Notes under the pieces: generated by a model
What the model saw: the letters and a program-made list of their open reading frames with translations, nothing else
Told to the model about the DNA's origin: nothing
Databases searched by the model: none
Shown here: positions 17,826-48,629 of the stretch, piece by piece
Layout of the letters: the number at the start of each line of letters is the position of its first letter
How positions within the stretch are numbered: position 1 is the stretch's first letter
From: a virus
Length of the DNA stretch: 64,000 nt
Strand: one strand, 5' to 3'
Virus record (IMG/VR): IMGVR_UViG_3300027917_000034
Span: 17,892-81,891 of that record
Translations under genes and position numbers: made by a program

Positions 17826-18494
17826 ATGACGATCCGAACGAATTCCGTCCAGCAGTGCGACCGCTGCCTGAAACCATTCAAGGAAGCACACCTGAAAGCA
17901 GGGGACGCAGTGCCCGCTTTCAAACAGAAGGGCCTTGTCGTCACGGAGACGACTGGCACGAACAAGGAAGAGGAGCCGAAGTACACGGTCCTGTTCTCGT
18001 TCGATGACCTGTGCCCTGCCTGTGAGAAGGCGGTGGACGGGCTTCTCAAGAAGCTCCGTCTCGACGGCGCCACCGCGAAGAAGTCTCGGAAGCGACGATC
18101 GAAGAAGAAGACGGAAGAGACTCCGCCCAAGCCGCCGGAGTACACCGAAGATCCTCCGGCCGAGGCCGAGGCCGAGCCTGCCGAGGAGCCCCCGGCGGAG
18201 AAGCCGGGACCGGATGGCGAGCCTGCCGCCTCCGAGGGCGAGCCCCAGGAGAGCCAGGAGTCCAAGGACACCACGGACGAGGATTTCGAGGAAGCCGCGA
18301 AGCAGACCGACGCGGATGTGGCGGATGCCGAGGCGACGGAAAGCTCCGATGGTGGCAACGGAGCGGAAGCAGGTTCCGACGACAACCTCGTGGAAGACCC
18401 CGCTACCGGCGACAAGTACGACCCCGAGACCGGGGAAGTCGTGGTGCGAGGAGACAAGGGACAGAACGGGGCGCCGGAAAAGCACCCCTTCTAG
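17826..18494 (+). CDS. Zn-binding protein with long acidic disordered tail
   Basis: CDRC...DLCPAC; GGAGG RBS. Confidence 0.7.
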   Translation: MTIRTNSVQQCDRCLKPFKEAHLKAGDAVPAFKQKGLVVTETTGTNKEEEPKYTVLFSFDDLCPACEKAVDGLLKKLRLDGATAKKSRKRRSKKKTEETPPKPPEYTEDPPAEAEAEPAEEPPAEKPGPDGEPAASEGEPQESQESKDTTDEDFEEAAKQTDADVADAEATESSDGGNGAEAGSDDNLVEDPATGDKYDPETGEVVVRGDKGQNGAPEKHPF

Positions 18495-27355: not shown

Positions 27356-27590
27356 CCTGAGCATGACCCTTCCGATCACACCGGACAACCTGCACACCGA
27401 ATTGGAGCACGTCGAGGCCATCGTGAGGAAGTGGCGCGAATTCATCGGCAACAAGGGTATCCCCGGGATCGACGCCCCGGCCCAAGATGCCGAGGCGAAG
27501 CTGGACGCCTTCATTCGGCAATTCACGGGCGAGATGTTCTACGTCGCCGGCAAGTGCCAGAACGTCGCCGTGGTGATGTCCGAGCGATGA
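27348..27590 (+). CDS. hypothetical protein
   Basis: GGAGG RBS; coupled at both ends. Confidence 0.7.
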   Translation: MSDLSMTLPITPDNLHTELEHVEAIVRKWREFIGNKGIPGIDAPAQDAEAKLDAFIRQFTGEMFYVAGKCQNVAVVMSER

Positions 27591-28393
27591 CGAAGAAGAA
27601 GGCCAGGACCAAGTTGGAGAGGCTGTCTCCGACTCTCATGGACCCGAATCCATGGAACCCAAACACCATGGACCAGGACGACTACGATCGTCTCGTGAAG
27701 GAGATTGATGAGGTCGGATTCATAGAGGCTGTCCAAGTCATCCCTCTCGAAGACGGACGGTACAGGATCATAGGGGGAGAGCATCGGGTGGCAGCGGCAT
27801 GCGACCTGCGCCTGAAGACGATCCCGGCCATGGTGCTGGACGGGCCGCGCTGGAAGGACGAGGAGCTACAACAGCTTGTCACGGTCCGTCTGAATGTCCT
27901 GTCCGGGCGTATCAACCCAGAGAAGATGGCGATCCTCTACAACCGCTACGCGAAGAAGTACGGTGAGGACGCCCTTCAAAACCTGTTCGCGTTCACCAAT
28001 CAGGATGCGTGGAAGAAGCTGGTCAGCGGGGTCAAGCAAGGGCTCTCCAAGGCCGCCATCCCGAAGGAGAAGCAGCAAGAGTTTGCCGACAAGGCGAAGG
28101 AAGCCAAGACCCTCAAAGACCTCGAACGAATCCTGAACGAGCTATGGTCCAGCTACGGCGACACGGTGCAACTCTCGTTCATGATCTTCACCTACGGCAA
28201 GAGGGAGCACTTCTACGTGGCCATGGACAGCAAGACCCGCAAGGCCGTCAAGCGCATCGGGGAGCACTGCAAGGGCCACGCGAAGGATATCAACACCGTC
28301 CTCGGGCCGGCTCTCCAGGCCCTCGCAGACGTCCTCGACAAAGAGGACAAGCCCACCAAGCAAGCGCCCCGTCAAGATGACGTTGGCTTCTGA
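27587..28393 (+). CDS. ParB/Srx N-terminal domain protein
   Basis: PNPWNPN, GF...V.V, IIGGEHR. Confidence 0.85.
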   Translation: MTKKKARTKLERLSPTLMDPNPWNPNTMDQDDYDRLVKEIDEVGFIEAVQVIPLEDGRYRIIGGEHRVAAACDLRLKTIPAMVLDGPRWKDEELQQLVTVRLNVLSGRINPEKMAILYNRYAKKYGEDALQNLFAFTNQDAWKKLVSGVKQGLSKAAIPKEKQQEFADKAKEAKTLKDLERILNELWSSYGDTVQLSFMIFTYGKREHFYVAMDSKTRKAVKRIGEHCKGHAKDINTVLGPALQALADVLDKEDKPTKQAPRQDDVGF

Positions 28394-28442: not shown

Positions 28443-31400
28443 ATGGGCATGATGAGCGCGACCGTTCCGACCGAGGCTCGGCCCTCCCTCATGGAGGCGA
28501 AAGGGCAGCCGAACCCGGAGAATTTCGTGCCGGTGTTCGATTGGGACGCCAAGCGGGTGTGGGTGTGGGTGAAGAAGGCTGGTGGGAAGGTCATCGGCCC
28601 GACAGAGATCCCCCACTCTCAGGTCAAGAAGTACAAGGGAAAGCTCGGCTGGATCGCGAAGAAGGTCCAGATCATCGCGCTCCTCGACCCCTCCACCTAC
28701 GACGACCCGGCCTACCTCTACCCGCCGACCTGGAAGCCGGGTGACTCGCTGGACCCAGAACAGTCCCTCGGGAAGCCGATCAAGGCGAAGTTTGAACCCT
28801 TCAAGATCGAGCCCGCAAAGCCGGCGCCGATGGAGCCCCCGGAAGGGTTCGAGCTACCACCCAACTACACGATCAAGAACGTCACCCCGTCCCACGTGAT
28901 AGCCACCACCCCGGAAGGGACGGACGTGAAGTGGATCAAGGTCACGGACCATTGGGTCCACGCGGACGACCCGACCAAGGACCACGAGCCACTCCAGGCT
29001 TCCGTTCCGAAGAAGGCCAAGCCGAAGGCCAAGGCCAAGCCGAAGAAGAAGCCGGCCAAGTCAACCGCAGCGGCGGCGAAGGCGGCGAAGGCTGCGGCCA
29101 CGGGAACGGAAGCACCTTCCACACCGAAGGCGAAACCATCCACCGGGAAGCCGAAGGGAAAGAAGGTCGTCTCGAAAGACCCGGAGAAGGCCCCGCACCT
29201 GACCAAGTACATCGGCCAGGTAGACCCGAACGGGCTACCCCTGGTGGACGAGCAGCCGGAGGGAGATTTCGAGGAAGAGGAAGCGGCCAAGGGGCTGACG
29301 CTCCTGCCAGACGATCGCGTGGCCAGGTGGCGCCCCAAGCACGGGTACTACCTCATCTACGACTACGACCCGCACTACGGATTCATGTTCTCCAAGAGCG
29401 GGGAGATGGTCTACCCCGAAGACGCCAAGCAACTCATGGACGCCCTACACCTGACGGTGAAGAATGGGCGCTACCACAAGTACGACGTGGCCGGAGACGA
29501 GAAGGAGCAGCCCGGCACGTACTCCGCCCCGCTTCCGCCGAATTGCGAGCCCATCGAGGACAAGGACACGAACGGGCTCCCGATGGTGAAGTCGATCCCG
29601 TCCGACGAGTGGGACGACCCGCAAGTCCTGACCCTGCTCCCGAACAGCCGGCTCGGTCGTTGGGATGAGGTCGCGGAGAAGTACCTCTATTTCGAGTGGC
29701 GGGACATCCTGGGGGACTACAACTACTACCCGACGCAGCCTGAGCAATTCGTGGGCCTCAAAGAGGTCCAGAAGATGCAAGCTCAGGGGGCTGCCCCAGC
29801 CGTCACCCCGAAGGCCCCGCCTCCCACCAAGCCGAAGGGCAAGCCGGCGCCGGTCCCTTCAAAGGCGACGACAGCACCGATCCCGGCGAAGAAGCCGGCC
29901 TCCCCGCCCGTGCTCGCGGGCCAGTTGAAGCCCACCGGGGACAAAGACCCGAAGGGGTACGACATCGGCTCCTACAAGGGCAACACCTACTCCATGCTGC
30001 CGGACAAGAAGGTCGGCGTGTGGTCGGCCTCGAACGGGGGCTACATCCTCTACAAGTACGAACCTGTTGGGGATGCGTTCTACAACACTGCGACGGTGTG
30101 GACGCCTCCAGGCCACCACAAGGCGCTCTCCTACGTGCCCATAAGCGGTGTGGATCACGCCCAACTGTCGGACAGCGAGGGAACGGACGTTGTTGTCCTC
30201 TCGAACGGGAAGTTTGCTCGCTACGAGAAGGGCGGCTGGTGGGCCTACAAGGTGGACCCGACGCAGGGCAAGAAATTCGTTCCGACAGGCGAAGAGATCG
30301 ACACGGACACAATGATCGATCTCTCCGAAGACCCTGCTTACAACACGCTCAGTCCGGCTGGCACTGTCGATGAGAACAGCCTCCCGCAGTACAAGGTCAC
30401 GAGCGGCGCATCGAAGGGCAAGGTCTTCACGATGCTCCCCAATGGGGAGATGGCCCACTACAACCCGAAGTCCAAATTCTACCGGCTCATGACGTTCGAC
30501 CCGGACATCCAAGGGTGGGAAATCTCCTGGCCGAAGGAGACGTTCACTCTCCAGGATATCGACGCCATGTACCTGAAGGCGGGGGCCACGCCGATCAAAC
30601 ACCCGGAGGCCCCACCGAAGGCCAAGCCGAAGACGGCCCCGAAGTCCAAGCCGGACACCGGACCTGAGCCGGAGCCGGCGTTCGTCACTCCAGAGGGCAC
30701 GCTCCCGGACCCGAACACCTTGGACGACATGGGTGCCAAGGGCCTGAAGGGCACGACCCCGGGCCGGACGGTCCTGCAAGACCCGAAGACGGGCCAGCGG
30801 TACCTGTTCAAGCCGGCGATCCAGAAATTCGGAGCCGGCAAGTTGCAGCCGTACAAGGCGAAGTCGCAGGAAGGGTTCGCCGCCATCGCGGCCATCGCCC
30901 GCCCGGACGCCCACGTGCCCGTCGAGACGGTGGAGTACAAGGGTCAACTCGGGACGATCCAGCCCATGATGGACGTGGACCCGAACCAGCCAGATCTGAA
31001 TGGCGTCTCTCCGAACGACCTCACCGATCAGCAGAAGGTGGACATCGCCTCGGAGCACATGCTCGACTGGCTCATGTCGCAGCACGATTCCTTCGCGTCA
31101 AACTTCATCATCACCAAGGAAGGGCGCGTCGTCGGCATCGACAAGGAACAGGGCTGGCGATACGTCAACGACAAAGAGCACCCTGATCGGCTGGCGACGG
31201 ACTACAAGCCGAACACGGAGATCTACGGCGAGCAGGAGCCGTACTACAACAAATTCTGGCGGGCGTTCGCGCAGGGGAAGATGGACTTCAACCCCGAGCA
31301 GATGGCCCCAGCGCTGGCGAAGCTGGAGGCCATGGACGCGACTAAGCTGGAAGGTGTGCTGGAGGACTACGCGGCCACCGTCACGCGCATGAAGGGGCCG

Positions 31401-33266
31401 GCGAAGGCATACGAGCGCTACGCATTCGTGAAGCAGATGCTCTCCCGCCGCGCCACGCTCCGCGCGGATTTCGAGAAATTCATCACGCGCCAGTACGAGA
31501 AGCGGGAGGGGACTCCTGGGAAATTCACGTTCGACCAGGGGTGGATTCCGGAGGGAGCGGAGGCACGGGAGAAGACCCACGAGACCTTGACGCTCACGGC
31601 TCGCGATTGGGCGCTCCGGGAGTTTGGATCTTCGGCACTGAAGCCGCACAAGGACTACCCCGAGTACATCCTCGTCCGGGTGACGCGCGACGAGCCCGTC
31701 ACCAAGGTCCAGGAATTTCTCGCCAAGATGGGCGTGGAGCCGGTGCAGACGGCTCCCGGTGGAGGCCCGCTGCCGACCACGAACCCAATCATGGGTACCA
31801 ACTACAACAGCGTCATCGTGCGTGTGTCGGACCTCGAAAAGACGGTCACGCGCAAGGTGGAGATCAAGCAAGAGAAGGGGCAGAAATTCGCGAACCACAA
31901 GGGCGCCCCGACCTACTTCTCGGCCGCGCTCGCTCCGCCGGCTGCTCCTGGGGACGTCAAGGCGTTGGCCACGGCGCACACGGAGAAGCTGGGCTCCCTC
32001 GGCAAGAATTTCACCCTGGACGCCGACGCTGTGGAGCAGCAGACGGCCTCGGTCCAGCGGGTCATCTCTCCGGAGGGGGAGACCTACTACACCGTCCATT
32101 TCAAGCTCCGCAAGCCCTACTGGAAGCCGCTCATGAACGCGGGCAAGTCCGGGGCGTACACGTGGCCCCTCGGAGCCTACGACGAGACGCAGGACGCCCT
32201 CGTCGCGTCGTCCTACCAGGGCGGCGCTCACTCGGAGTCGGGGCGAGTGTTCACGTCCGGCAAGCACAAGATGGTCATCCTCGGGGACTCCTCTCAGTGG
32301 GCATTCCGTGGTTCCGTCTACGCGGACATCCACGTCAAGGGGAGCACCAGCGTTCTGTCGGCTCTGACGACGCTCATGAAGATGGCCGGGCTGGACAAGA
32401 AGGTGATCAAAGATCCGACGCCCGAGGACATCGAAGTTTACAACATGACCCAGGCGCTCTGGTCGCTGTCCCCGAAGAAGCACAAGGCCCTGACCGATAG
32501 CGACTTGAACGTGGAGACGCTGCGGAAGAAGCTGAAAGGCGTCCTCACCAAGGATCAGATCGCGTCCATCCGGCAGGTCAAGGGCACGGTCGGACGCGGT
32601 GCTCCGATCATTCCGGGGCTGTGGAAGACCCTCGGCGGCGGGACACCGGACAAGCCGGTCGTTCGCTTCCTCTTCTGGACGGTCAACACGACGAGCCCGG
32701 CGCGGATTATCAAGTCGGCTGCTACGGGCATCCATGAGCGTCTGCGCCTCGGCGTCGGCGTCGGCAAGGGCACCTCGGAGTCGTCAGACATGGCGTCCGG
32801 CGGCGCAGACGCGACGACGGTGCGGATCGCCACGGTCGGCGGCAAGCATCATGGAGTCAGCAACGTCGGGAGCGTGAGCCGTCCAGTCAAACTCATCATC
32901 GCCCCGGAGATCCTGGACAGGCTGGACATCCACATCGCCAGCAATGACTCCTACGGGTGCACGAACCCGAACAACTCGAACGCTTCCTACTTCACCGGGC
33001 GCAAGGGCCTGAGCCAGGCGGTGAAGCACTTCAACGATCAGGGCAACTACGGAGGGAGCACGGAGGTCGTCATCCGTCGCGGGGTTCCGCCGGAGATGAT
33101 CAAGCGTATCTGCTGCTCGAACGAGAGCGACCGGAAAGACATTCTGGAGCGCATGGAGAAGGCCGGCGTGACGGAGTGGAACGGCTGCCCCATCGAGGAT
33201 TTCGTCGTGGTGGAGAACAACCAGGATGCAATCTATAATAAGTACCTGAAGCCGCTGGGGTACTGA
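28443..33266 (+). CDS. 1607-aa multidomain protein: repeats + HipA/PI3K-like kinase + putative ADP-ribosyltransferase-like C-terminus
   Basis: YLFKP, E, DWL..QHD...NF, GIDK; five N-terminal repeats; C-terminal S..D..SGGAD...STEVV. Confidence 0.65.
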   Translation: MGMMSATVPTEARPSLMEAKGQPNPENFVPVFDWDAKRVWVWVKKAGGKVIGPTEIPHSQVKKYKGKLGWIAKKVQIIALLDPSTYDDPAYLYPPTWKPGDSLDPEQSLGKPIKAKFEPFKIEPAKPAPMEPPEGFELPPNYTIKNVTPSHVIATTPEGTDVKWIKVTDHWVHADDPTKDHEPLQASVPKKAKPKAKAKPKKKPAKSTAAAAKAAKAAATGTEAPSTPKAKPSTGKPKGKKVVSKDPEKAPHLTKYIGQVDPNGLPLVDEQPEGDFEEEEAAKGLTLLPDDRVARWRPKHGYYLIYDYDPHYGFMFSKSGEMVYPEDAKQLMDALHLTVKNGRYHKYDVAGDEKEQPGTYSAPLPPNCEPIEDKDTNGLPMVKSIPSDEWDDPQVLTLLPNSRLGRWDEVAEKYLYFEWRDILGDYNYYPTQPEQFVGLKEVQKMQAQGAAPAVTPKAPPPTKPKGKPAPVPSKATTAPIPAKKPASPPVLAGQLKPTGDKDPKGYDIGSYKGNTYSMLPDKKVGVWSASNGGYILYKYEPVGDAFYNTATVWTPPGHHKALSYVPISGVDHAQLSDSEGTDVVVLSNGKFARYEKGGWWAYKVDPTQGKKFVPTGEEIDTDTMIDLSEDPAYNTLSPAGTVDENSLPQYKVTSGASKGKVFTMLPNGEMAHYNPKSKFYRLMTFDPDIQGWEISWPKETFTLQDIDAMYLKAGATPIKHPEAPPKAKPKTAPKSKPDTGPEPEPAFVTPEGTLPDPNTLDDMGAKGLKGTTPGRTVLQDPKTGQRYLFKPAIQKFGAGKLQPYKAKSQEGFAAIAAIARPDAHVPVETVEYKGQLGTIQPMMDVDPNQPDLNGVSPNDLTDQQKVDIASEHMLDWLMSQHDSFASNFIITKEGRVVGIDKEQGWRYVNDKEHPDRLATDYKPNTEIYGEQEPYYNKFWRAFAQGKMDFNPEQMAPALAKLEAMDATKLEGVLEDYAATVTRMKGPAKAYERYAFVKQMLSRRATLRADFEKFITRQYEKREGTPGKFTFDQGWIPEGAEAREKTHETLTLTARDWALREFGSSALKPHKDYPEYILVRVTRDEPVTKVQEFLAKMGVEPVQTAPGGGPLPTTNPIMGTNYNSVIVRVSDLEKTVTRKVEIKQEKGQKFANHKGAPTYFSAALAPPAAPGDVKALATAHTEKLGSLGKNFTLDADAVEQQTASVQRVISPEGETYYTVHFKLRKPYWKPLMNAGKSGAYTWPLGAYDETQDALVASSYQGGAHSESGRVFTSGKHKMVILGDSSQWAFRGSVYADIHVKGSTSVLSALTTLMKMAGLDKKVIKDPTPEDIEVYNMTQALWSLSPKKHKALTDSDLNVETLRKKLKGVLTKDQIASIRQVKGTVGRGAPIIPGLWKTLGGGTPDKPVVRFLFWTVNTTSPARIIKSAATGIHERLRLGVGVGKGTSESSDMASGGADATTVRIATVGGKHHGVSNVGSVSRPVKLIIAPEILDRLDIHIASNDSYGCTNPNNSNASYFTGRKGLSQAVKHFNDQGNYGGSTEVVIRRGVPPEMIKRICCSNESDRKDILERMEKAGVTEWNGCPIEDFVVVENNQDAIYNKYLKPLGY

Positions 33267-33267
33267 G

Positions 33268-33690
33268 ATGGGAATTCCGTTCGAGAGAGTCTACAGGTCA
33301 AAGCGGGATGGAGACCCGCACTGGTCCATCGTCATGGGCTTGACGCCACTGCCCGGCAGGAAGGGCGTGTGGATGTGGAGGGCGAGCGAGACTCACCCCG
33401 AGATCGCCCTTCGCGGGGAGGTGTTCGAGGGTGAGGACGGCAAACTCGTCCTCGTCGGTCCCGATGGACGCCACACGTTCGAGCCCCTCACGATCGAGAC
33501 GTGGGAAGACATGCGCGATGACGTGGGAGGGTTCGAGGAAATCCGGAAGGCGATCAACACCGACACCTTCCTCCAGTCCTGGTATTGGGACGAATTCGCG
33601 CACGACGGGGCAGGCAATGAGATAGGCCAGGCCGAAGTGCTCGCCCGGCTGACAGAGCGCGAACGTCCCGACGAGCGCGCCGAATCGTGA
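33268..33690 (+). CDS. hypothetical protein coupled to the large gene
   Basis: ATG 1 nt after stop; Trp-rich, acidic C-half. Confidence 0.7.
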   Translation: MGIPFERVYRSKRDGDPHWSIVMGLTPLPGRKGVWMWRASETHPEIALRGEVFEGEDGKLVLVGPDGRHTFEPLTIETWEDMRDDVGGFEEIRKAINTDTFLQSWYWDEFAHDGAGNEIGQAEVLARLTERERPDERAES

Positions 33691-34017: not shown

Positions 34018-34488
34018 ATGGCAAACGAGACGTCCCAAGTCGCAGGTGTGGCCGAAGCCGTGAAGAAGGCGAAGGGGAAGCCGGCGAAGAAGCGCAGCAA
34101 GGCCAAGGCGAAGCCCCCGAAGGCGACCAAGGCGCGGAAGAAGAAGGGCGCCACCCCCAGGAAGAAGGCCCCGAAGATGACCTCCGAGAAGACAGCCCCG
34201 ACGAGCGGGCAGAGCGGGCCGCCCATAGAGCTTTCCGTGGAGGGCCTCAACACGAAAGAGGCCAAGATCTTCTCCGCGCTCAATGGCTCGGGCTCCGGCG
34301 TTCGGACGATCATGACGATCACCGAATTGGCGGCGGAGTGCTTCAAGTCGCGCGGGAAGAAGCAGGCCAACTCGTGGACGCGGAATTCGCTTCGGCGCCT
34401 CGTGCAGTCTGGCCTCGTGGAGAAGGTGGAGCGCGGCAAGTACCGCGTGTCGGACGCCGGCCGGAAGAAGCTGGCCCGCGCCGCGTAG
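34018..34488 (+). CDS. histone H1-like Lys/Ala/Pro-rich protein with C-terminal winged helix
   Basis: KKAKGKPAKK tract; TITELA...RNSLRRLV.SGLVEKV.RGKY. Confidence 0.75.
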   Translation: MANETSQVAGVAEAVKKAKGKPAKKRSKAKAKPPKATKARKKKGATPRKKAPKMTSEKTAPTSGQSGPPIELSVEGLNTKEAKIFSALNGSGSGVRTIMTITELAAECFKSRGKKQANSWTRNSLRRLVQSGLVEKVERGKYRVSDAGRKKLARAA

Positions 34489-34494
34489 TCCCAC

Positions 34495-36294
34495 GTGTTG
34501 GACTACGACTTCATCACGCGGGCGGACGACCTCGACCGCATCGCGCAGGACGTCCTACAGGCGGACGTCGTAGGGCTCGATATCGAGACGACGGCCCTGG
34601 ACCCGCGCTTCGGTGACATACGTTTAGTCCAGTTGATCGTGCCTGGCGTGGAGAACGACAGCCGGGGACGCATCTACGTCATCGACCTCTTCCAGACCAA
34701 GACGCTCGGCCCGGTCCTTGCGGCCATGCGGGAGACGAGCGCAATCTTCGTCATCCACAACGCGAAATTCGAGCAGAAGTGGATGTGGTGGAAATTCCGC
34801 TTCCGCATGTGGCCGGTGTTCTGCACCTTCCGGGCGTCGGCCATGACGTACAATGGGAAGAAGGGGATCAAGCACGACCTGGACTCCGTGATCATCCGCG
34901 AGTTGGGGGAGCACCCGGTCAACACCGGGCAGGGAGCCTCTGACTGGTCGAAACCCAACCTCACGCAGGAGCAGAAAGACTACGCGGCCGAGGACGTGCT
35001 GCGGCTGCTCCGCCTCCGTGTCGCCTTGAAGGGCAAGTTGACCGAGTACGGCTTGCTCACAACGGCCCTCGTGGAGTTTGGCGTGGTGTTCGCGGAGGGC
35101 CGGACCGAGTTGAACGGCTTCGCGCTCAATCAGGAGAAGTGGAAGGCGCTGGCCGAGACGAACATAGAGGCCCGCACACGTGCGCGGGAGGAGCTACTCT
35201 ACGAGCTACCTCACCCCAAGGATCAACTCGCCCTGCCCGGGTTCGGCGGACAGTGGAACGTGGACTCTCCACAGCAGATGCTCGCCTCCCTGCAACGGCT
35301 CGGCCTCAAGATCGAGAACACGCCCGAGATCGTGCTGGCGCAGCACGCGGGCAAGTACCCCCTCGTGAAGAAGGTGCTGGACTACCGGCACATCGCCCAG
35401 CGCGTCAAGACGTTCGGAATGACGTTCCTGCGGCACATCGACGCGGACGGGCGCATCCACCCCGAGTATTTCGGGCTGCTCGTCACAGGGCGCTACAGCG
35501 CCAACAAGAGCATGCAGCAGATACCCCGGGGCGCGGAATTCCGGGACTGTTTCGAGCCCCTGGAGGGGAGGCGCCTGGTAGGTGCGGACTACTCCGGGAT
35601 CGAGATGCGCCTGTGCGCGGAAATCTCCGGGGACAAGGCGCTCACGCTGGTCTTCGTGAACGGGGAGGACGCGCACCGGGCGACGGCTGCGGTCATCATG
35701 GATATCGACCCATCGCAGGTGTCGAAAGGCGACCGCCAGAACGCCAAGCCCGTCAACTTCGGGTTCATCTACGGCATGATGCCCGACAAACTCATCCTCT
35801 ACGCCATGAGCAACTACGGCGTGACCCTGACCCCACACCAAGCGAAGACCTATCGGAAGCGCTATTTCGAGCGCTACGAGGGAATCGGCCACTGGCACAA
35901 GAGGGTGCTTCGGGACGGGCAGCGGAACGGCTTCTCCAGGACTCTCTGCGGGCGTATCCGCTACCTGGACCCGAACGAGGCGTTCAACGAATTCTACAAC
36001 ACCCCTGTCCAGGGTTCCGGGGCGGACGCTCTGAAGACCTCGCTGGCCATCGTGCAGGACGCACTGGACGCGCGGTACGGCATCACCCCAGCCGAGACAC
36101 CGGATGGCCCGGTCCAGATCGTCCACCACGTGCACGACGAGATCATCCTGGAGGCGGACGACGACCACGAGATGGTGGCGGACACGGAGCGGTTGCTCCA
36201 CGACGGGATGAAGGAAGGCATGGAGAAATTCGTCAAGACCGTGCCTGTTGTGGTAGACCCGTCCAACGGGCGATCGTGGGCTGAGATACATTGA
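34495..36294 (+). CDS. polA: DNA polymerase family A (3'-5' exonuclease + polymerase, no 5' nuclease)
   Basis: DIET, HNAKFE, YAAED; TGR, ADYSGIEMR, R..AK.VNFG..YG, VHDE. Confidence 0.95.
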   Translation: MLDYDFITRADDLDRIAQDVLQADVVGLDIETTALDPRFGDIRLVQLIVPGVENDSRGRIYVIDLFQTKTLGPVLAAMRETSAIFVIHNAKFEQKWMWWKFRFRMWPVFCTFRASAMTYNGKKGIKHDLDSVIIRELGEHPVNTGQGASDWSKPNLTQEQKDYAAEDVLRLLRLRVALKGKLTEYGLLTTALVEFGVVFAEGRTELNGFALNQEKWKALAETNIEARTRAREELLYELPHPKDQLALPGFGGQWNVDSPQQMLASLQRLGLKIENTPEIVLAQHAGKYPLVKKVLDYRHIAQRVKTFGMTFLRHIDADGRIHPEYFGLLVTGRYSANKSMQQIPRGAEFRDCFEPLEGRRLVGADYSGIEMRLCAEISGDKALTLVFVNGEDAHRATAAVIMDIDPSQVSKGDRQNAKPVNFGFIYGMMPDKLILYAMSNYGVTLTPHQAKTYRKRYFERYEGIGHWHKRVLRDGQRNGFSRTLCGRIRYLDPNEAFNEFYNTPVQGSGADALKTSLAIVQDALDARYGITPAETPDGPVQIVHHVHDEIILEADDDHEMVADTERLLHDGMKEGMEKFVKTVPVVVDPSNGRSWAEIH

Positions 36295-44908: not shown

Positions 44909-45814
44909 GTGGAGCAGCTAGTGTCGGCCAAGATGATCGAGAGTCAAAACAAACTCCTCCCAGGCGCCGAGTTGAGGCGGCTGCGTATGGGGAGCTACGA
45001 GGCTCGGATCGAAGAGATGAGCAGGGTCGTCCACGCGAGCCTTGGTGATGAGCCGTTCGAGATCGTGGCGACACAGGACAGCGGGGCCGTCGTGTACGCA
45101 GACGGCCGGTTCCTTCGGCTGGAATTGACCGAGGACGGTCCGTCGCTCACAGACCTCGACGTGGAGACTTTCGACGCGGCCAGTCTGTACGCTTTCATGG
45201 AGCGCGAGGCTGGTGTAGTGGCCGATCTCTTTCTCCGTGGCTCCGTGAAGTCGGCGGTAGCGCGGTTGGAGAACCTGGTTCCGGCAGTCCCGCTCCCGAG
45301 CGGGGCCACCGCGAAGATCGAAGCCTTGATTGCTGCTCCGCGACCGTGGAGACGACTGTTCGAGGCTCGCAGAGACTACATCGTCGGCTTCATCGGAGAG
45401 GACGCAGAGGCCCTGGAAGAGGGTCGGTTGCGCCCCAACTTCGGTAAGTTGTATGATGGGTCGATCGAAGAAGGCAAACTCGACAACTACGAGGATCGGG
45501 TATCAGAAGGTCTGGGGATCGTGCTTGACAGGTTGGGACAGATTCGGGACGAGGTTGGGTCTGCGCTCGCGTCAGCGACCGACGCGCTCTCCGAGTCCAC
45601 AGAGCCTATCGCAGCGCTGTTCTCCCGGTTCGCGGATGATCTGTACGCCGATCTTTTCGCCCTCCACGAGTCGGCTTCCCACGCAACAGAAGCAGTAGAC
45701 GATATCGGGACTCGTGGTAAACTCTGCGACACGCTTGCCGAAGGGCTGTACGATCGTGAGGTCGCCAGCCGCTTCGTCGTCGTGGTGGCCGACAAAATGG
45801 TCGAGGCCAGCTAG
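44909..45814 (+). CDS. hypothetical head-module protein
   Basis: 301 aa between portal and scaffold. Confidence 0.7.
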   Translation: MEQLVSAKMIESQNKLLPGAELRRLRMGSYEARIEEMSRVVHASLGDEPFEIVATQDSGAVVYADGRFLRLELTEDGPSLTDLDVETFDAASLYAFMEREAGVVADLFLRGSVKSAVARLENLVPAVPLPSGATAKIEALIAAPRPWRRLFEARRDYIVGFIGEDAEALEEGRLRPNFGKLYDGSIEEGKLDNYEDRVSEGLGIVLDRLGQIRDEVGSALASATDALSESTEPIAALFSRFADDLYADLFALHESASHATEAVDDIGTRGKLCDTLAEGLYDREVASRFVVVVADKMVEAS

Positions 45815-45820
45815 GGAGGA

Positions 45821-46735
45821 ATGAAAATGGGTCTGCTACTGAGACACCCGGTTGTGATCACTTCCTTGGAGGAAGACTTCCGGCGCATTGGCCTCATCAA
45901 GACCGAAGAGGCCCGCGACGAGGGAGACGACCTGCAAGAGCACCTCATGGAGTCCACCGAGGACTTCGATGCCGAGGACGAGCCCGAAGAGGGTGAGGAC
46001 GAGGCCACCGAGGATGCGGACGAGGACGACGAGGCCATGGCCGAAGCCGTCGCCTTCCACGAGGACGCCATGTCCATGTGGCAGGAGTTTGGCGAGTCTG
46101 GCGTCGAGACTCTGTTCATGGACGAGGAGTCCATGGCCGAGTTGGAGTCCATGGGCGAGTCCATCACCGAGCTTCCCCTCGCGGTCGTCGGCGCCTCCAT
46201 CGAGGAGTACGGCGACGAGTACGAGGGCGAAGAGGTCCACGAGGACGACGAGGCCGAGGACGACGAGGAAGAGGGCGAGGAGTACGGCGAAGACGACGAG
46301 CCGGCCAATCCCTTTGCCTCCGTTGCAGAGGCCATGAGCGCGATCGAGTCCATCCTGGACGAGGACGCGCAGCCGACCGACTCGCTGGAGGAAGCGACTC
46401 CGGCGTTCGCCAACCTGGCTCTCATCTCGGAGAAGCTGTACGGCTTCTTTGCCGAGACGGCCGAGATCCAGGAAGACGCGGAGTACGCGGAGATTGCCGA
46501 GGCGTACAAGCAGATCGCACACTACTCGGCGGCGATCGTGGACACCCTCCAGAAGGAGAGCCCGGACACGATCAACTTCGATGCCCTGACCGAGACCTTC
46601 CAGGACTACCTCGGGACGGTCCTGCAAGGGCTGGAGACCTACGCCATTCTGCGCGAGGCCGACGAGAGCGGCGACGAGGACGGCGAGACGGACGAGGGCG
46701 AGGAGCAGGACGAGGGCGACGAGGGAAACGAATAG
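45821..46735 (+). CDS. highly acidic prohead core/scaffold-like protein
   Basis: D/E-rich, many L/I-x-E sites, upstream of protease. Confidence 0.65.
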   Translation: MKMGLLLRHPVVITSLEEDFRRIGLIKTEEARDEGDDLQEHLMESTEDFDAEDEPEEGEDEATEDADEDDEAMAEAVAFHEDAMSMWQEFGESGVETLFMDEESMAELESMGESITELPLAVVGASIEEYGDEYEGEEVHEDDEAEDDEEEGEEYGEDDEPANPFASVAEAMSAIESILDEDAQPTDSLEEATPAFANLALISEKLYGFFAETAEIQEDAEYAEIAEAYKQIAHYSAAIVDTLQKESPDTINFDALTETFQDYLGTVLQGLETYAILREADESGDEDGETDEGEEQDEGDEGNE

Positions 46736-46968
46736 ACCGGCGGCGCCCCTTGCCGCCCAAGAAAGGCGGCTCTTGGCGGCGGCGTCGGACGGCGTATTCC
46801 TCGGGTAGACGGGAGGAGATCGGTATGGAAAAGAGCCCGGTGAAACGGAAGACACGGAAGGTCGGACCATCCGGCGCCGTGCTCGACCGCCCCGGGTTCG
46901 GTGGCGTGCTCGACACCATCGTCGGGCGAACGCCGTTCCGGTCCAGCTTCCGATGGAAGAGGTCGTGA
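46723..46968 (+). other. putative -1 frameshift site G GGA AAC with basic extension frame
   Basis: In-frame XXXYYYZ heptamer, downstream stem, -1 frame open to the TGATG overlap with the protease start. Confidence 0.55.
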
Positions 46969-48629
46969 TGGGCGCGCAGACTACCCCGGCCCCTGAGAAC
47001 CAGTTGATCGATGAGCAGGTTCATCACTGCAAGCTCACACTGGTCGAGGGGGAAGGCGAGAAGAAGGGTCGCGTGTACGCACGCGGCGAATTCGGCCACG
47101 CGGCCAAGCCGACCGCGAACGGCCGCTTCTACCGGCACAACATCTGGGAGAGCAACATCGCCCGCCTGCGGCCCAACCTGGAGTCGAGGAAGGTTCTGGG
47201 CGAGTTGGACCATCCGACTGACGGGCGGACGGCCCTCCAGCGTGCCTCCCACGTCATCACCGATCTTCGCCTGGAAGGCGATCAGGTGTTGGGCGAGGCG
47301 GAGATCCTGGACACGGCCAAGGGGCGTGACCTGAAGGCCATCCTCGCAGCGGGCGTCCCGGTGGGCATCTCGTCGCGCGGTTTCGGAAGCACCAAGCCGA
47401 ACAGCGAAGGTGTGGAGGAAGTCCAAGAGGACTACAAACTCGTCACCTTCGATTTCGTCGCGGAGCCGGCGGACCCAACGGCCTACCCGGAAGCGGTGTT
47501 CGAGAACGCCGAGCAGGGTGTGGCCATGATGTTCGAGGGCGTGGCTTTCGAGACGGCCGAGGCGGAACCAGCTTCCGAGCCCGAGCCCGAGCCCGAACCC
47601 GAAGGTGATGAGCCGTCCGAAGGGGAGGAAGAGGCCGACGAGAGCGTGGCTCCGAACGTCGGCTCTGCCCCGCCCGGAGAAGCGGAGATGGCCCAGCGCT
47701 TCGCGGAGCGCGTCATTGCCGATGCGGAAGGCAACTCGGTCGATGTGGAGGCGCTCCGTCAGGAGTTTGCGGATCAGATCGTGTCCCGCATCGCGGCCCT
47801 CCGTGCCGACGTGGAGAAGCAGGTCCGGGCTGAGATGGCATCGGACCCGGCTGTCGCGGGCGCGCGGGCTGCTTTGGAGCAGGTACAGCGTGCCTTACTC
47901 CCCTTCGCCCTGACAGAGGATGCCAACGCGCTCATCGCGGAGCGCGACGACGAAATCCGCGTCCTGCGGTCCCAACTGGCCGAGGCCGAGCAGACCATCG
48001 AACAGCACGAGACGCTGATCGAAACGCTGGCGGAGGCGGCCAAGGAAGCCGGCTACAAGTACCACCTGGAGTGCCTGCTTCACGAGGACGACGCGGACAT
48101 CGAACGCCTGAGAGCGATCGTCGGGGACGTCTCGCAGTACGACAGCCCGGATGCGCTCCGCGAGCGGGTCGAGGAAGCCTACGGAGAGATGCAAGCGTTC
48201 CGTCTGGAAGAGGAGCGCGTGCAACAACAGCGCACGGCGGAATCCGATCGTCTGCGCGGCAAGAACCGCGAGTTGGCCGAGGGCCTGGAGAAGGCGCTCG
48301 TGGCCAATCGTGACCTCGCTCTCCAGGTGTACGCATCCGAGAGGTTGCAAACTCACCCACAAGGTGCGAAGATCCTCCGCATGCTCAAGCGATCTGGAAT
48401 CCAGTCGCGCGAGCAAGTGGACGCGATGATCGAGGACTTCCGAGAGCCAGAACGTGACGCAGAAGACCTGGAAGCGGTTCGAGCCAGGGTTCGCGCACGG
48501 CTGCATGGCGGGCGGGAGTACCTGGAAGAGGACGTTCAACCCGCACGCGGCCGGGGGGCCGGGGCGGGCAACTACAACGGGCTCGGAGCATCCCTGGCGG
48601 AGCTAAAGCACCTCTCTGGGATGGACTGA
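46968..48629 (+). CDS. prohead protease (T4 gp21-like) fused to a scaffold-like coiled coil
   Basis: NGR.Y, GELDHP, ASH, GISSRG, DFV.EP; acidic helical C-terminus. Confidence 0.9.
   Translation: MGAQTTPAPENQLIDEQVHHCKLTLVEGEGEKKGRVYARGEFGHAAKPTANGRFYRHNIWESNIARLRPNLESRKVLGELDHPTDGRTALQRASHVITDLRLEGDQVLGEAEILDTAKGRDLKAILAAGVPVGISSRGFGSTKPNSEGVEEVQEDYKLVTFDFVAEPADPTAYPEAVFENAEQGVAMMFEGVAFETAEAEPASEPEPEPEPEGDEPSEGEEEADESVAPNVGSAPPGEAEMAQRFAERVIADAEGNSVDVEALRQEFADQIVSRIAALRADVEKQVRAEMASDPAVAGARAALEQVQRALLPFALTEDANALIAERDDEIRVLRSQLAEAEQTIEQHETLIETLAEAAKEAGYKYHLECLLHEDDADIERLRAIVGDVSQYDSPDALRERVEEAYGEMQAFRLEEERVQQQRTAESDRLRGKNRELAEGLEKALVANRDLALQVYASERLQTHPQGAKILRMLKRSGIQSREQVDAMIEDFREPERDAEDLEAVRARVRARLHGGREYLEEDVQPARGRGAGAGNYNGLGASLAELKHLSGMD

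Follow-up and report, generated by a model that had tools for sequence, protein, structure and literature searches.

Virion-delivered effectors that combine several enzymes, such as T4 Alt and the MuF toxins, are already known as a general kind. DarT is a bacterial toxin that defends against phages through DNA ADP-ribosylation, at thymine or guanine of single-stranded DNA. Polyvalent proteins are large, multidomain and thought to be packaged in virions, and they carry enzymes that act on the host; ADP-ribosyltransferases (ARTs) are their commonest modifying domain, and the polyvalent-protein kinase belongs to a group without a C-lobe, found in elements of Verrucomicrobia and Bacteroidetes, with no mention of DarT or DUF4433 (PMC5512222). 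Toxin cargo is known from MuF, a head protein associated with the portal, and the paper on MuF toxins mentions neither a kinase nor DarT/DUF4433 (PMC5576092). The T4 prohead protease gp21 cuts after L/I-x-E, and its cleavage was first observed at a Glu-Ala bond; Alt, the internal proteins and gp23 each lose an N-terminal propeptide to it, 7-65 residues in length (PMC9026906). A survey of viral NAD+/ADP-ribose systems mentioned DarT-like ARTs only for the ORF28 proteins of arthropod viruses. We analyzed a 64,000-nucleotide stretch of viral DNA (the window; positions 17,892 to 81,891 of IMG/VR record IMGVR_UViG_3300027917_000034) in which one long gene encodes P0001, a multidomain protein of 1607 amino acids (aa) that joins a kinase-like domain to a DarT-like ART and is followed by a small partner gene, P0002. 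The reading that we favor, and consider probable from the sequence, is that P0001 is packaged in the virion and injected as an effector with two enzymes, for which the partner is an inhibitor or a chaperone.

Our literature searches found no description of a module made of this kinase, a DarT-like ART and the partner, and pairing the term "DarT-like" with phage returned nothing closer. The combination of the two domain families, the leader rule across distant T4-like phages described below, and the partner family all appear undescribed so far. The P0001 gene (28443..33266, + strand) is the longest open reading frame (ORF) of its region; its ATG start is preceded by the Shine-Dalgarno-like GAGGTAGGGA, and its TGA stop occupies 33264-33266. 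A first-pass annotation, made from the letters and a list of ORFs, had called this 1607-aa ORF and listed motifs along it; the ORF is real and each of those motifs was found where it had been placed.

Kinase domain. The atypical protein-kinase-like domain spans aa 751-1040 (30693..31562, +) and was delimited by AlphaFold2, Foldseek, the VIA structure search and conserved alignment columns, with K790, Q809/E810, D882, N887 and D900 as its key positions. AlphaFold2 with a 43-sequence alignment gave a model with a mean predicted local distance difference test score (pLDDT) of 94 and a predicted template modeling score (pTM) of 0.91. Foldseek returned 426 PDB matches to this model at E ≤ 1e-3, and 50/50 among the matches listed were kinases. 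In VIA the best match was PI4KIIalpha (Z 15.2 over 237 aa, root-mean-square deviation (rmsd) 3.8), followed by CtkA (Z 14.2), LepB (Z 11.8), Fam20A (Z 11.4), actin-fragmin kinase (Z 11.1), Vps34 (Z 11.0), MavQ (Z 10.4), HipT (Z 9.9) and HipA (Z 8.6-9.8), while canonical Ser/Thr/Tyr kinases reached Z ≤ 7.6. The model shows a kinase fold of the PI4KIIalpha/CtkA/HipA clade, which agrees with the HipA/PI3K-like placement made in the first-pass annotation. Its motif assignments also fell on conserved columns of the 43-sequence alignment, where the ATP-binding Lys K790, the catalytic-loop residues D882 and N887 and the metal-binding D900 are invariant or nearly so. K790 lies in the strand YLFKP, Q809/E810 (KSQE) in the next helix, D882 and N887 in the loop DWLMSQHDSFASNF, where most members read D-S-H-x-x-N-F, and D900 in GIDKEQ, which contains the GIDK noted earlier. 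The domain is likely to be catalytically active on the strength of these conserved residues.

With the PI4KIIalpha/CtkA/HipA kinases the domain shares the fold, the D-x-H-x-x-N-F loop at the level of the whole family, and a metal-binding Asp after the loop. It differs in falling below the Pfam kinase cut-offs, in the Phe in the P0001 loop, in motifs of its own (LGGAGEK, GIDKEQ and Y-x-PN..YGE.EPYYN in the family) and in having no partner of the HipB/HipS type. Pfam gave no PI3_PI4_kinase or HipA_C match in P0001; relatives had sub-threshold matches to HipA_C (E 0.002-0.05) and PI3_PI4_kinase (E 2e-4), in agreement with the structural placement. The kinase group also differs from that of the polyvalent proteins.

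The same kinase domain was present, unannotated, in mycobacteriophage proteins upstream of ADPrib_exo_Tox, with 24-33% identity and E values down to 4e-16. These proteins are annotated as "minor capsid and ADP-ribosyltransferase fusion" (McProf-like) or "ADP-ribosyltransferase" (Aikoy gp15). McProf gp54-like proteins and Aikoy gp15 are like P0001 in carrying this kinase-like domain upstream of an ART, and unlike it in that their ART is ADPrib_exo_Tox, of the R-S-E type. Searching phage records with tblastn recovered the kinase domain only, in mycobacteriophages, and megablast against 50,697 phage records gave no match to the finding. In prophiFSIL01-1 gp53 (L001:2339-5881) and Aikoy gp15 (L002:2416-6438), the kinase copy sits between VG15 or the N-terminal part and ADPrib_exo_Tox. 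Elsewhere (P0144, P0027, P0140) the domain is joined to further conflict-type domains, namely InPase (E 3e-26), NUDIX and ADPrib_exo_Tox, with P0140 carrying it upstream of an ADPrib_exo_Tox ART.

DarT-like ART. The second enzyme domain lies at aa 1393-1607 (32619..33263, +), with the ART fold covering aa 1393-1600, and was recognized by fold matches, conserved residues and a Pfam DarT match below the cut-off. The whole C-terminal module (aa 1040-1607) was modeled with AlphaFold2 on 44 sequences (pLDDT 91, pTM 0.81). The best Foldseek matches were E. coli DarT1 (8baq, probability 1.0), M. tuberculosis DarT (7yk3) and Thermosipho DarTG. VIA, which is independent of Foldseek and was run with this model over 48,161 chains, ranked four DarT structures first: 8baq (DarT1; Z 9.7 over 169 aa, rmsd 3.5, model 354-557 against chain 2-205), 7omu (Z 9.4), 7omv (Z 9.3) and 7yk3 (Z 8.4). 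Tpt1 (Z 6.9), OspC3/CopC (Z 6.5-6.7), CteC (Z 6.3), SopF (Z 5.5) and Scabin (Z 5.0) came next, and unrelated folds reached Z ≤ 4.7. The DarT-type fold spans the whole ART domain, with 161-169 residues aligned to chain residues 2-205 of 208. In BFVD only uncharacterized viral proteins resembled the C-terminal module. The sole Pfam match in all of P0001 was to DarT (PF14487), at aa 1537-1577 and profile positions 144-189 of 201, over the strand that bears the Glu described next. PDB sequence searches with the whole of P0001 and with profiles of the kinase and ART alignments returned nothing relevant; the domains were resolved by structure prediction only, and both enzyme folds were recovered in this way.

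The key ART residues are W1412, R1433, D1456, R1461, R1493, D1495, D1502 and E1541. Across the 44 sequences E1541, R1493, D1495, D1502 and G1453 are invariant, and R1433, D1456 and R1461 nearly so. E1541 begins the strand EVVIR (1541-1545 in the model). The catalytic residue of DarT1 is E152, with E160 as its DarT2 equivalent (PMC11543638), and from its position in the aligned ranges E1541 would correspond to both; the other NAD-pocket residues were placed by position only. By its model the domain is a DarT-clade ART fold with conserved catalytic residues. The first-pass annotation had recognized a DarT/PARP-like layout with a terminal Glu in the motifs FLFWTV, ERLR, SESSD..GGAD and STEVVIRRG, and had noted a Trp where the first-strand His is expected; the motifs, the layout, the Glu and the Trp all held. 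DarT enzymes act on single-stranded DNA (PMC11543638), and because of the affinity to DarT and Tpt1 a nucleic acid (single-stranded DNA or RNA), not a protein, would be the most likely target. The DarT toxins of DarTG systems (DarT1 8BAQ, DarT2 7OMV, M. tuberculosis DarT 7YK3) are the best whole-domain structural matches and share the invariant Glu and the partial Pfam match. In contrast to these host defense toxins, the P0001 ART is embedded in a 1607-aa phage protein with a seemingly obligatory extra domain before it, and it is accompanied by an unrelated 140-aa protein where those systems have an antitoxin of the DarG macrodomain or NADAR type.

Family. A word-seeded search found 26 long homologs of P0001, all metagenomic, without a name or a Pfam domain save for one with a NUDIX domain. 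With aa 750-1607 as query, an exhaustive HMMER search collected 1362 proteins at E ≤ 1e-3, of which 172 also passed E ≤ 1e-30. We ran profiles of four segments (kinase, mid0, mid and ART) on 164 family proteins. In 132 of these, (mid0)-mid-ART came after a single kinase domain or a pair of them, and the mid-ART order was found in 139, including proteins without a detected kinase domain. A further 15 proteins had just one kinase domain and five had two, and a few proteins had only mid-ART or only ART. About 40 of the 164 (P0014-P0023, P0031, P0033 and others) carried two tandem kinase copies ahead of the ART module. At least one seemingly "stand-alone" protein was a fragment of a full-length gene. 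When we sought a true stand-alone ART locus, the relative of P0111 turned out to belong to a full-length gene, and for P0124 there was no viral locus. Some relatives were 3000-6300 aa long without any Pfam domain, and a Pfam search of three giant relatives (2585-4180 aa) likewise found none. PHROGs had no match for P0001 or P0002. Among 185,579 species genomes the sole match was a 235-kb contig (L017; CAJUSD010000001.1) of an Oscillospiraceae metagenome-assembled genome. It has a MuF-kinase-ART gene with the partner downstream and flanking ORFs like those of two viral loci (L014 and L016) in number and size, and is probably a prophage or a binned phage. Since the bacterial-genome scan gave only this one contig, it offers no host lead. 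The family is widespread in uncultivated phages.

Leader and prohead protease. The first 18 residues (28443..28496, +) form a putative propeptide or capsid-targeting leader that ends in L16-M-E18 before A19. The first-pass annotation had likened this SLME|A sequence to a gp21 L-x-E site; it lies at aa 15-19 and proved conserved and enriched in the family, and the phage encodes a protease of the matching type. L-x-E-A is kept in 11/12 close orthologs, and P0001 contains one further such motif. Among long relatives, [LIVM]-x-E-A occurred in the first 60 aa of 74/120 (62%), as against 4.9% of 3781 background windows from the same proteins, an enrichment of ~12-fold. The motif closes a leader of variable length (~8-45 residues), including in relatives of ~30% identity that have no other N-terminal similarity. 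A gp21-type prohead protease with a long C-terminal extension is encoded at 46953..48629 (+; Peptidase_S77 E 8e-19, PHROG 207) and would be the enzyme that cleaves the P0001 leader. P0001 is like T4 Alt and the internal proteins in belonging to a phage with a T4-type head and a gp21-type protease, in a leader ending in L-x-E|A and, for Alt, in having an ART domain. It is unlike Alt in showing no sequence similarity, in the clade of its ART (DarT rather than the R-S-E type of Alt/VIP2), and in its additional kinase, repeat array and dedicated partner gene. If it holds, the L-x-E|A leader is a sequence rule by which head-delivered proteins could be predicted in distant T4-like phages.

The prohead protease itself is 558 aa long; Peptidase_S77 covers only aa 32-180, and several LAEA/LAEG motifs occur in the extension, which suggests a protease-scaffold fusion. 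Two genes between the portal and the protease (44909-45814 and 45821-46735) encode proteins of ~300 aa with 9 and 7 [LIVM]-x-E-[AGS] motifs and very acidic stretches. Pfam assigned neither product to a family, and from their sequences they look like prohead core or scaffold proteins that are cut by the gp21-type protease.

MuF relatives. At four loci (L012, L014, L016 and L017) the kinase-mid-ART cargo follows a Phage_Mu_F domain. These distant relatives, which provide a second and independent line of evidence, have 26-32% identity, are ~1000-1100 aa long and combine Phage_Mu_F, kinase, Rho_N, mid and ART; Pfam, run on L014 and L012 among these loci, detected Phage_Mu_F at E 8e-14 (L014) and 6e-9 (L012), and it did so at 1e-5 in P0118. 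The gene order in L014 was terminase, portal, the MuF-kinase-ART gene, partner, protease and capsid protein, and L016 and L017 had a matching ORF pattern. With a leader in P0001 and MuF in the distant relatives, the same cargo appears to be mounted on two different head-targeting devices, and we regard this as the strongest argument for packaging. The distant relatives resemble polyvalent and MuF toxins as MuF fusions encoded after the portal with a small downstream ORF; P0001 differs in having the leader instead of MuF. A small ORF directly downstream of the enzymatic C-terminus, a MuF-toxin trait, was found at every locus examined. P0001 could on these grounds be a MuF-type polymorphic toxin with its immunity protein, serving mainly in competition among bacteria or phages by superinfection exclusion or by killing non-immune neighbors, rather than in takeover of the infected host, and an architecture with a delivery part, variable enzymatic C-terminal domains and a small downstream ORF fits such a role. 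However, MuF toxins have been reported only in temperate phages (PMC5576092). The present phage, a T4-like myovirus, carries a full set of replication genes and has no integrase or repressor among its annotated genes, none having been specifically searched for. The C-terminal module is moreover conserved rather than polymorphic, with the kinase-mid-ART order in 132/164 relatives, and we consider a role in competition rather improbable.

Partner gene. P0002 (33268..33690, +) encodes 140 aa with an isoelectric point (pI) of 4.7, and its ATG at 33268 follows the last base of the P0001 stop (33266) after one intervening nucleotide, as the first-pass annotation had it. A small ORF sits at, or a few bases from, the stop of the big gene in all 13 viral loci. 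We built an iterated partner profile seeded on P0002 and three clear orthologs and ran it against 2935 six-frame ORFs (≥50 aa) from the 13 loci and the window. At 11/13 loci it matched only the ORF directly downstream of the big gene; the L013 match was marginal (E 0.02), and a partner in L007 was inferred because its ORFs are identical to those of L006. The profile also matched in L017 and L019, giving 13/15 loci in total, or 14/15 with the inferred L007, and bearing out the linkage that had been suggested for the 140-aa gene. In the mycobacteriophages, McProf gp54-like and Aikoy gp15 included, the genes have the kinase domain alone in common with P0001, and the profile matched none of the ORFs downstream of them. 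The partner therefore tracks the C-terminal module, being present at nearly all loci and absent beside these mycobacteriophage genes.

P0002 belongs to no Pfam or PHROG family, and ESM Atlas gave no usable lead (pLDDT 0.54, TM < 0.5). A macrodomain or NADAR antitoxin was considered as its identity and rejected, as neither P0002 nor its relatives had a Macro or NADAR match in Pfam. At L006:9555-10748, and identically in L007, the partner makes up the N-terminal part of a 397-aa protein that ends in a RelA_SpoT domain (alarmone-synthetase/toxSAS-like, E 1.4e-18). We put inhibition of the ART in the producing cell at slightly below an even chance; an assembly or piggy-back adaptor is possible at a lower level, and some other role is a little less likely again.

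Proposed mechanism. P0001 would be made in the infected cell, and its N-terminal part would direct it into the prohead, where the gp21-type protease would cut it after L16-M-E18. Together with the phage DNA it would then be ejected into the next host, as T4 Alt and the internal proteins are. The kinase domain would most likely phosphorylate one or more host proteins, and the ART, with the seemingly obligatory accessory domain at aa 1173-1322 before it, would transfer ADP-ribose from NAD+ to some macromolecule of the host. Inside the head, the repeats and the basic linkers would probably act as a spacer and as a DNA- or core-binding part. The translationally coupled partner would bind the C-terminal module in the producing cell, and would either keep the enzyme silent as an immunity-like inhibitor or serve as an assembly adaptor. 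P0001 places a DarT-fold enzyme on the phage side, joined in one protein with a HipA/CtkA/PI4KII-clade kinase, and the capsid is its probable delivery vehicle. This bears on how large phages take over their hosts in the first seconds of infection, on whether phosphorylation and ADP-ribosylation are coupled, and on what may be a new inhibitor or adaptor fold for an ART.

Several observations weigh against this proposal. The loop His of the kinase D-x-H-x-x-N motif is Phe in the subfamily of P0001. The canonical first-strand His of the ART is Trp (W1412), in a family column that reads W/H/F/C/S/A. In DarT1, Phe18 of strand 1 stacks the nicotinamide and there is no canonical Tyr (PMC11543638), so an aromatic residue at the His position is compatible with ART activity. 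The DarT match in Pfam scored 15 bits (E 0.021), or 19.3 bits in the genome search, against a curated cut-off of 22.5. Pfam found no Phage_Mu_F domain in P0001. The depletion of L-x-E in the mature part was modest (35 observed vs 56 expected, among compared sequences that are related), and we dropped it as support because it is weak. The partner has no macrodomain or NADAR match in Pfam, and its RelA_SpoT fusion in one lineage suits a binding or adaptor module better than an antitoxin. Finally, P0001 sits in the replication module, flanked by the ParB-like nuclease and DNA polymerase I, and the terminase is 7 kb further downstream.

Genomic setting. The window comes from an IMG/VR viral contig of 81.9 kb (CheckV completeness estimate ~48%) with ~63% guanine plus cytosine and nearly all long ORFs on the + strand. 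Upstream of P0001 is the ParB-like nuclease (27431-28393) and downstream are DNA polymerase I (34495-36294) and ThyX, with a helicase, a UvsX-like recombinase and a Cas4-like exonuclease also nearby; the terminase, portal and prohead protease follow from 40.7 kb onwards. The pairing of a P0001-type gene with a polymerase gene of ~600 aa is repeated in L004-L007 and L013. These neighbors, together with the action of DarT enzymes on single-stranded DNA (PMC11543638), fit a protein that is not packaged and acts in the infected cell beside the replication genes, with the partner as a regulatory subunit. It might then modify phage or host DNA or RNA, for example in DNA modification against restriction or in shutting off host replication from within. 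Gene position is weak evidence in this case, however. T4 likewise keeps alt and the genes of its internal proteins apart from the cluster of head genes. Both the L-x-E-A leader, with its conservation, and the location of the MuF fusions after the portal in distant relatives point instead to the head, and we consider a purely intracellular role unlikely. Pfam identifies the head module as T4-type from Portal_T4, a Peptidase_S77 of the gp21 family (E 8e-19) and Gp23, the capsid protein (E 1e-70); a tail sheath is also present. The closest portal sequences, at ~34% identity, came from large myoviruses (Microcystis, Flavobacterium and cyanophages).

Repeats and linkers. The N-terminal half of P0001 contains five diverged repeats with the pattern D.NGLP / (T/S)(L/M)LP(D/N).(R/K)...W, which the first-pass annotation had described together with Lys/Pro-rich linkers between them. 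Repeat 1 (R1) spans aa 255-345 (29205..29477, +), R2 aa 368-445 (29544..29777, +), R3 aa 498-562 (29934..30128, +), R4 aa 563-630 (30129..30332, +) and R5 aa 636-712 (30348..30578, +). The repeats were not seen in a BLAST self-comparison of P0001 and emerged by local alignment with shuffling; the pattern is visible in their alignment. R1, R2, R3 and R5 are mutually alike at local-alignment z of 4-13, with R1 at z 11-14 against R2, R3 and R5, and none of 200 shuffles reached their score. R4 is the most diverged (pairwise z 1.3-3.6), weak by itself but aligned in the same register as the other four. Used as a profile, the five units detected 6-18 copies in relatives against the 5 of P0001, so the N-terminal half is an array whose number of repeats varies. 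No usable lead on the repeats came from ESM Atlas. All three linkers are Lys/Pro/Ala-rich with pI 9.3-10.6: linker 1 at aa 186-250 (28998..29192, +; pI 10.6, 20 K+R in 65 aa), linker 2 at about aa 446-497 (29778..29933, +; pI 10.5; to aa 500 in the linker comparison) and the Pro/Lys linker 3 at aa 713-750 (30579..30692, +).

A repeat array that varies from 5 to 18 copies between basic linkers could belong to a structural or scaffolding component of the head, such as a ruler or an inner-body-like protein, in which both enzyme domains would be pseudoenzymes. The Phe in place of His in the kinase loop and the Trp in place of the first-strand His of the ART are consistent with this. Yet K790, D882, N887, D900, E1541, R1433 and D1456 are invariant or nearly so across sequences of ~30% identity, and pseudoenzymes seldom keep the expected catalytic residues so conserved; a purely structural P0001 is, in our assessment, highly improbable.

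Possible coupling of the two enzymes. The kinase and the DarT/Tpt1-like ART might also be an obligate pair that works on one target, an idea we hold to be quite unlikely. The kinase would phosphorylate a host macromolecule, at a protein side chain or a nucleic-acid hydroxyl, and the ART would then put ADP-ribose from NAD+ onto or next to that phosphate. Tpt1 acts in this way with 2'-phosphates. The pairing is allowed by the kinase-mid-ART order in 132/164 relatives, by Tpt1 as the next-best fold after DarT, and by the recurrence of the same kinase upstream of an unrelated ART clade in mycobacteriophages and P0140. If true, it would produce a phospho-ADP-ribose mark that host macrodomain or NADAR erasers could not remove. 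In a milder form, the phage may have made the DarT defense toxin of its host into a weapon of its own, injected to halt replication by ADP-ribosylating the host DNA.

Other regions of P0001. The conserved N-terminal region at aa 19-185 (28497..28997, +) contains a block PNPEKFVPVFDWD...VWVWVKK that is conserved in orthologs; the second half of the region is aligned to what in relatives is a further, weak copy of the repeat, where the repeat profile matches aa ~138-195. After the kinase comes the alpha/beta segment mid0 at aa 1046-1140 (31578..31862, +), which had weak structural matches (Z ≤ 4.7) and is present in most, not all, relatives. The beta-sheet-rich mid domain at aa 1173-1322 (31959..32408, +; pLDDT >90) is found ahead of the ART as a rule without known exception in full-length genes and had weak YbjN, type-III-chaperone and START-like matches (Z ~4). 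Between mid and the ART is a small helical unit at aa 1325-1376 (32415..32570, +) that is weakly helix-turn-helix-like, with KorB and C.Esp1396I as matches (Z 3.7-3.8). Just upstream of the DNA polymerase gene, 34018-34488 encodes a 156-aa protein with a C-terminal winged-helix match to the AbiEi antitoxin/Mrr_N family (E 1.5e-5).

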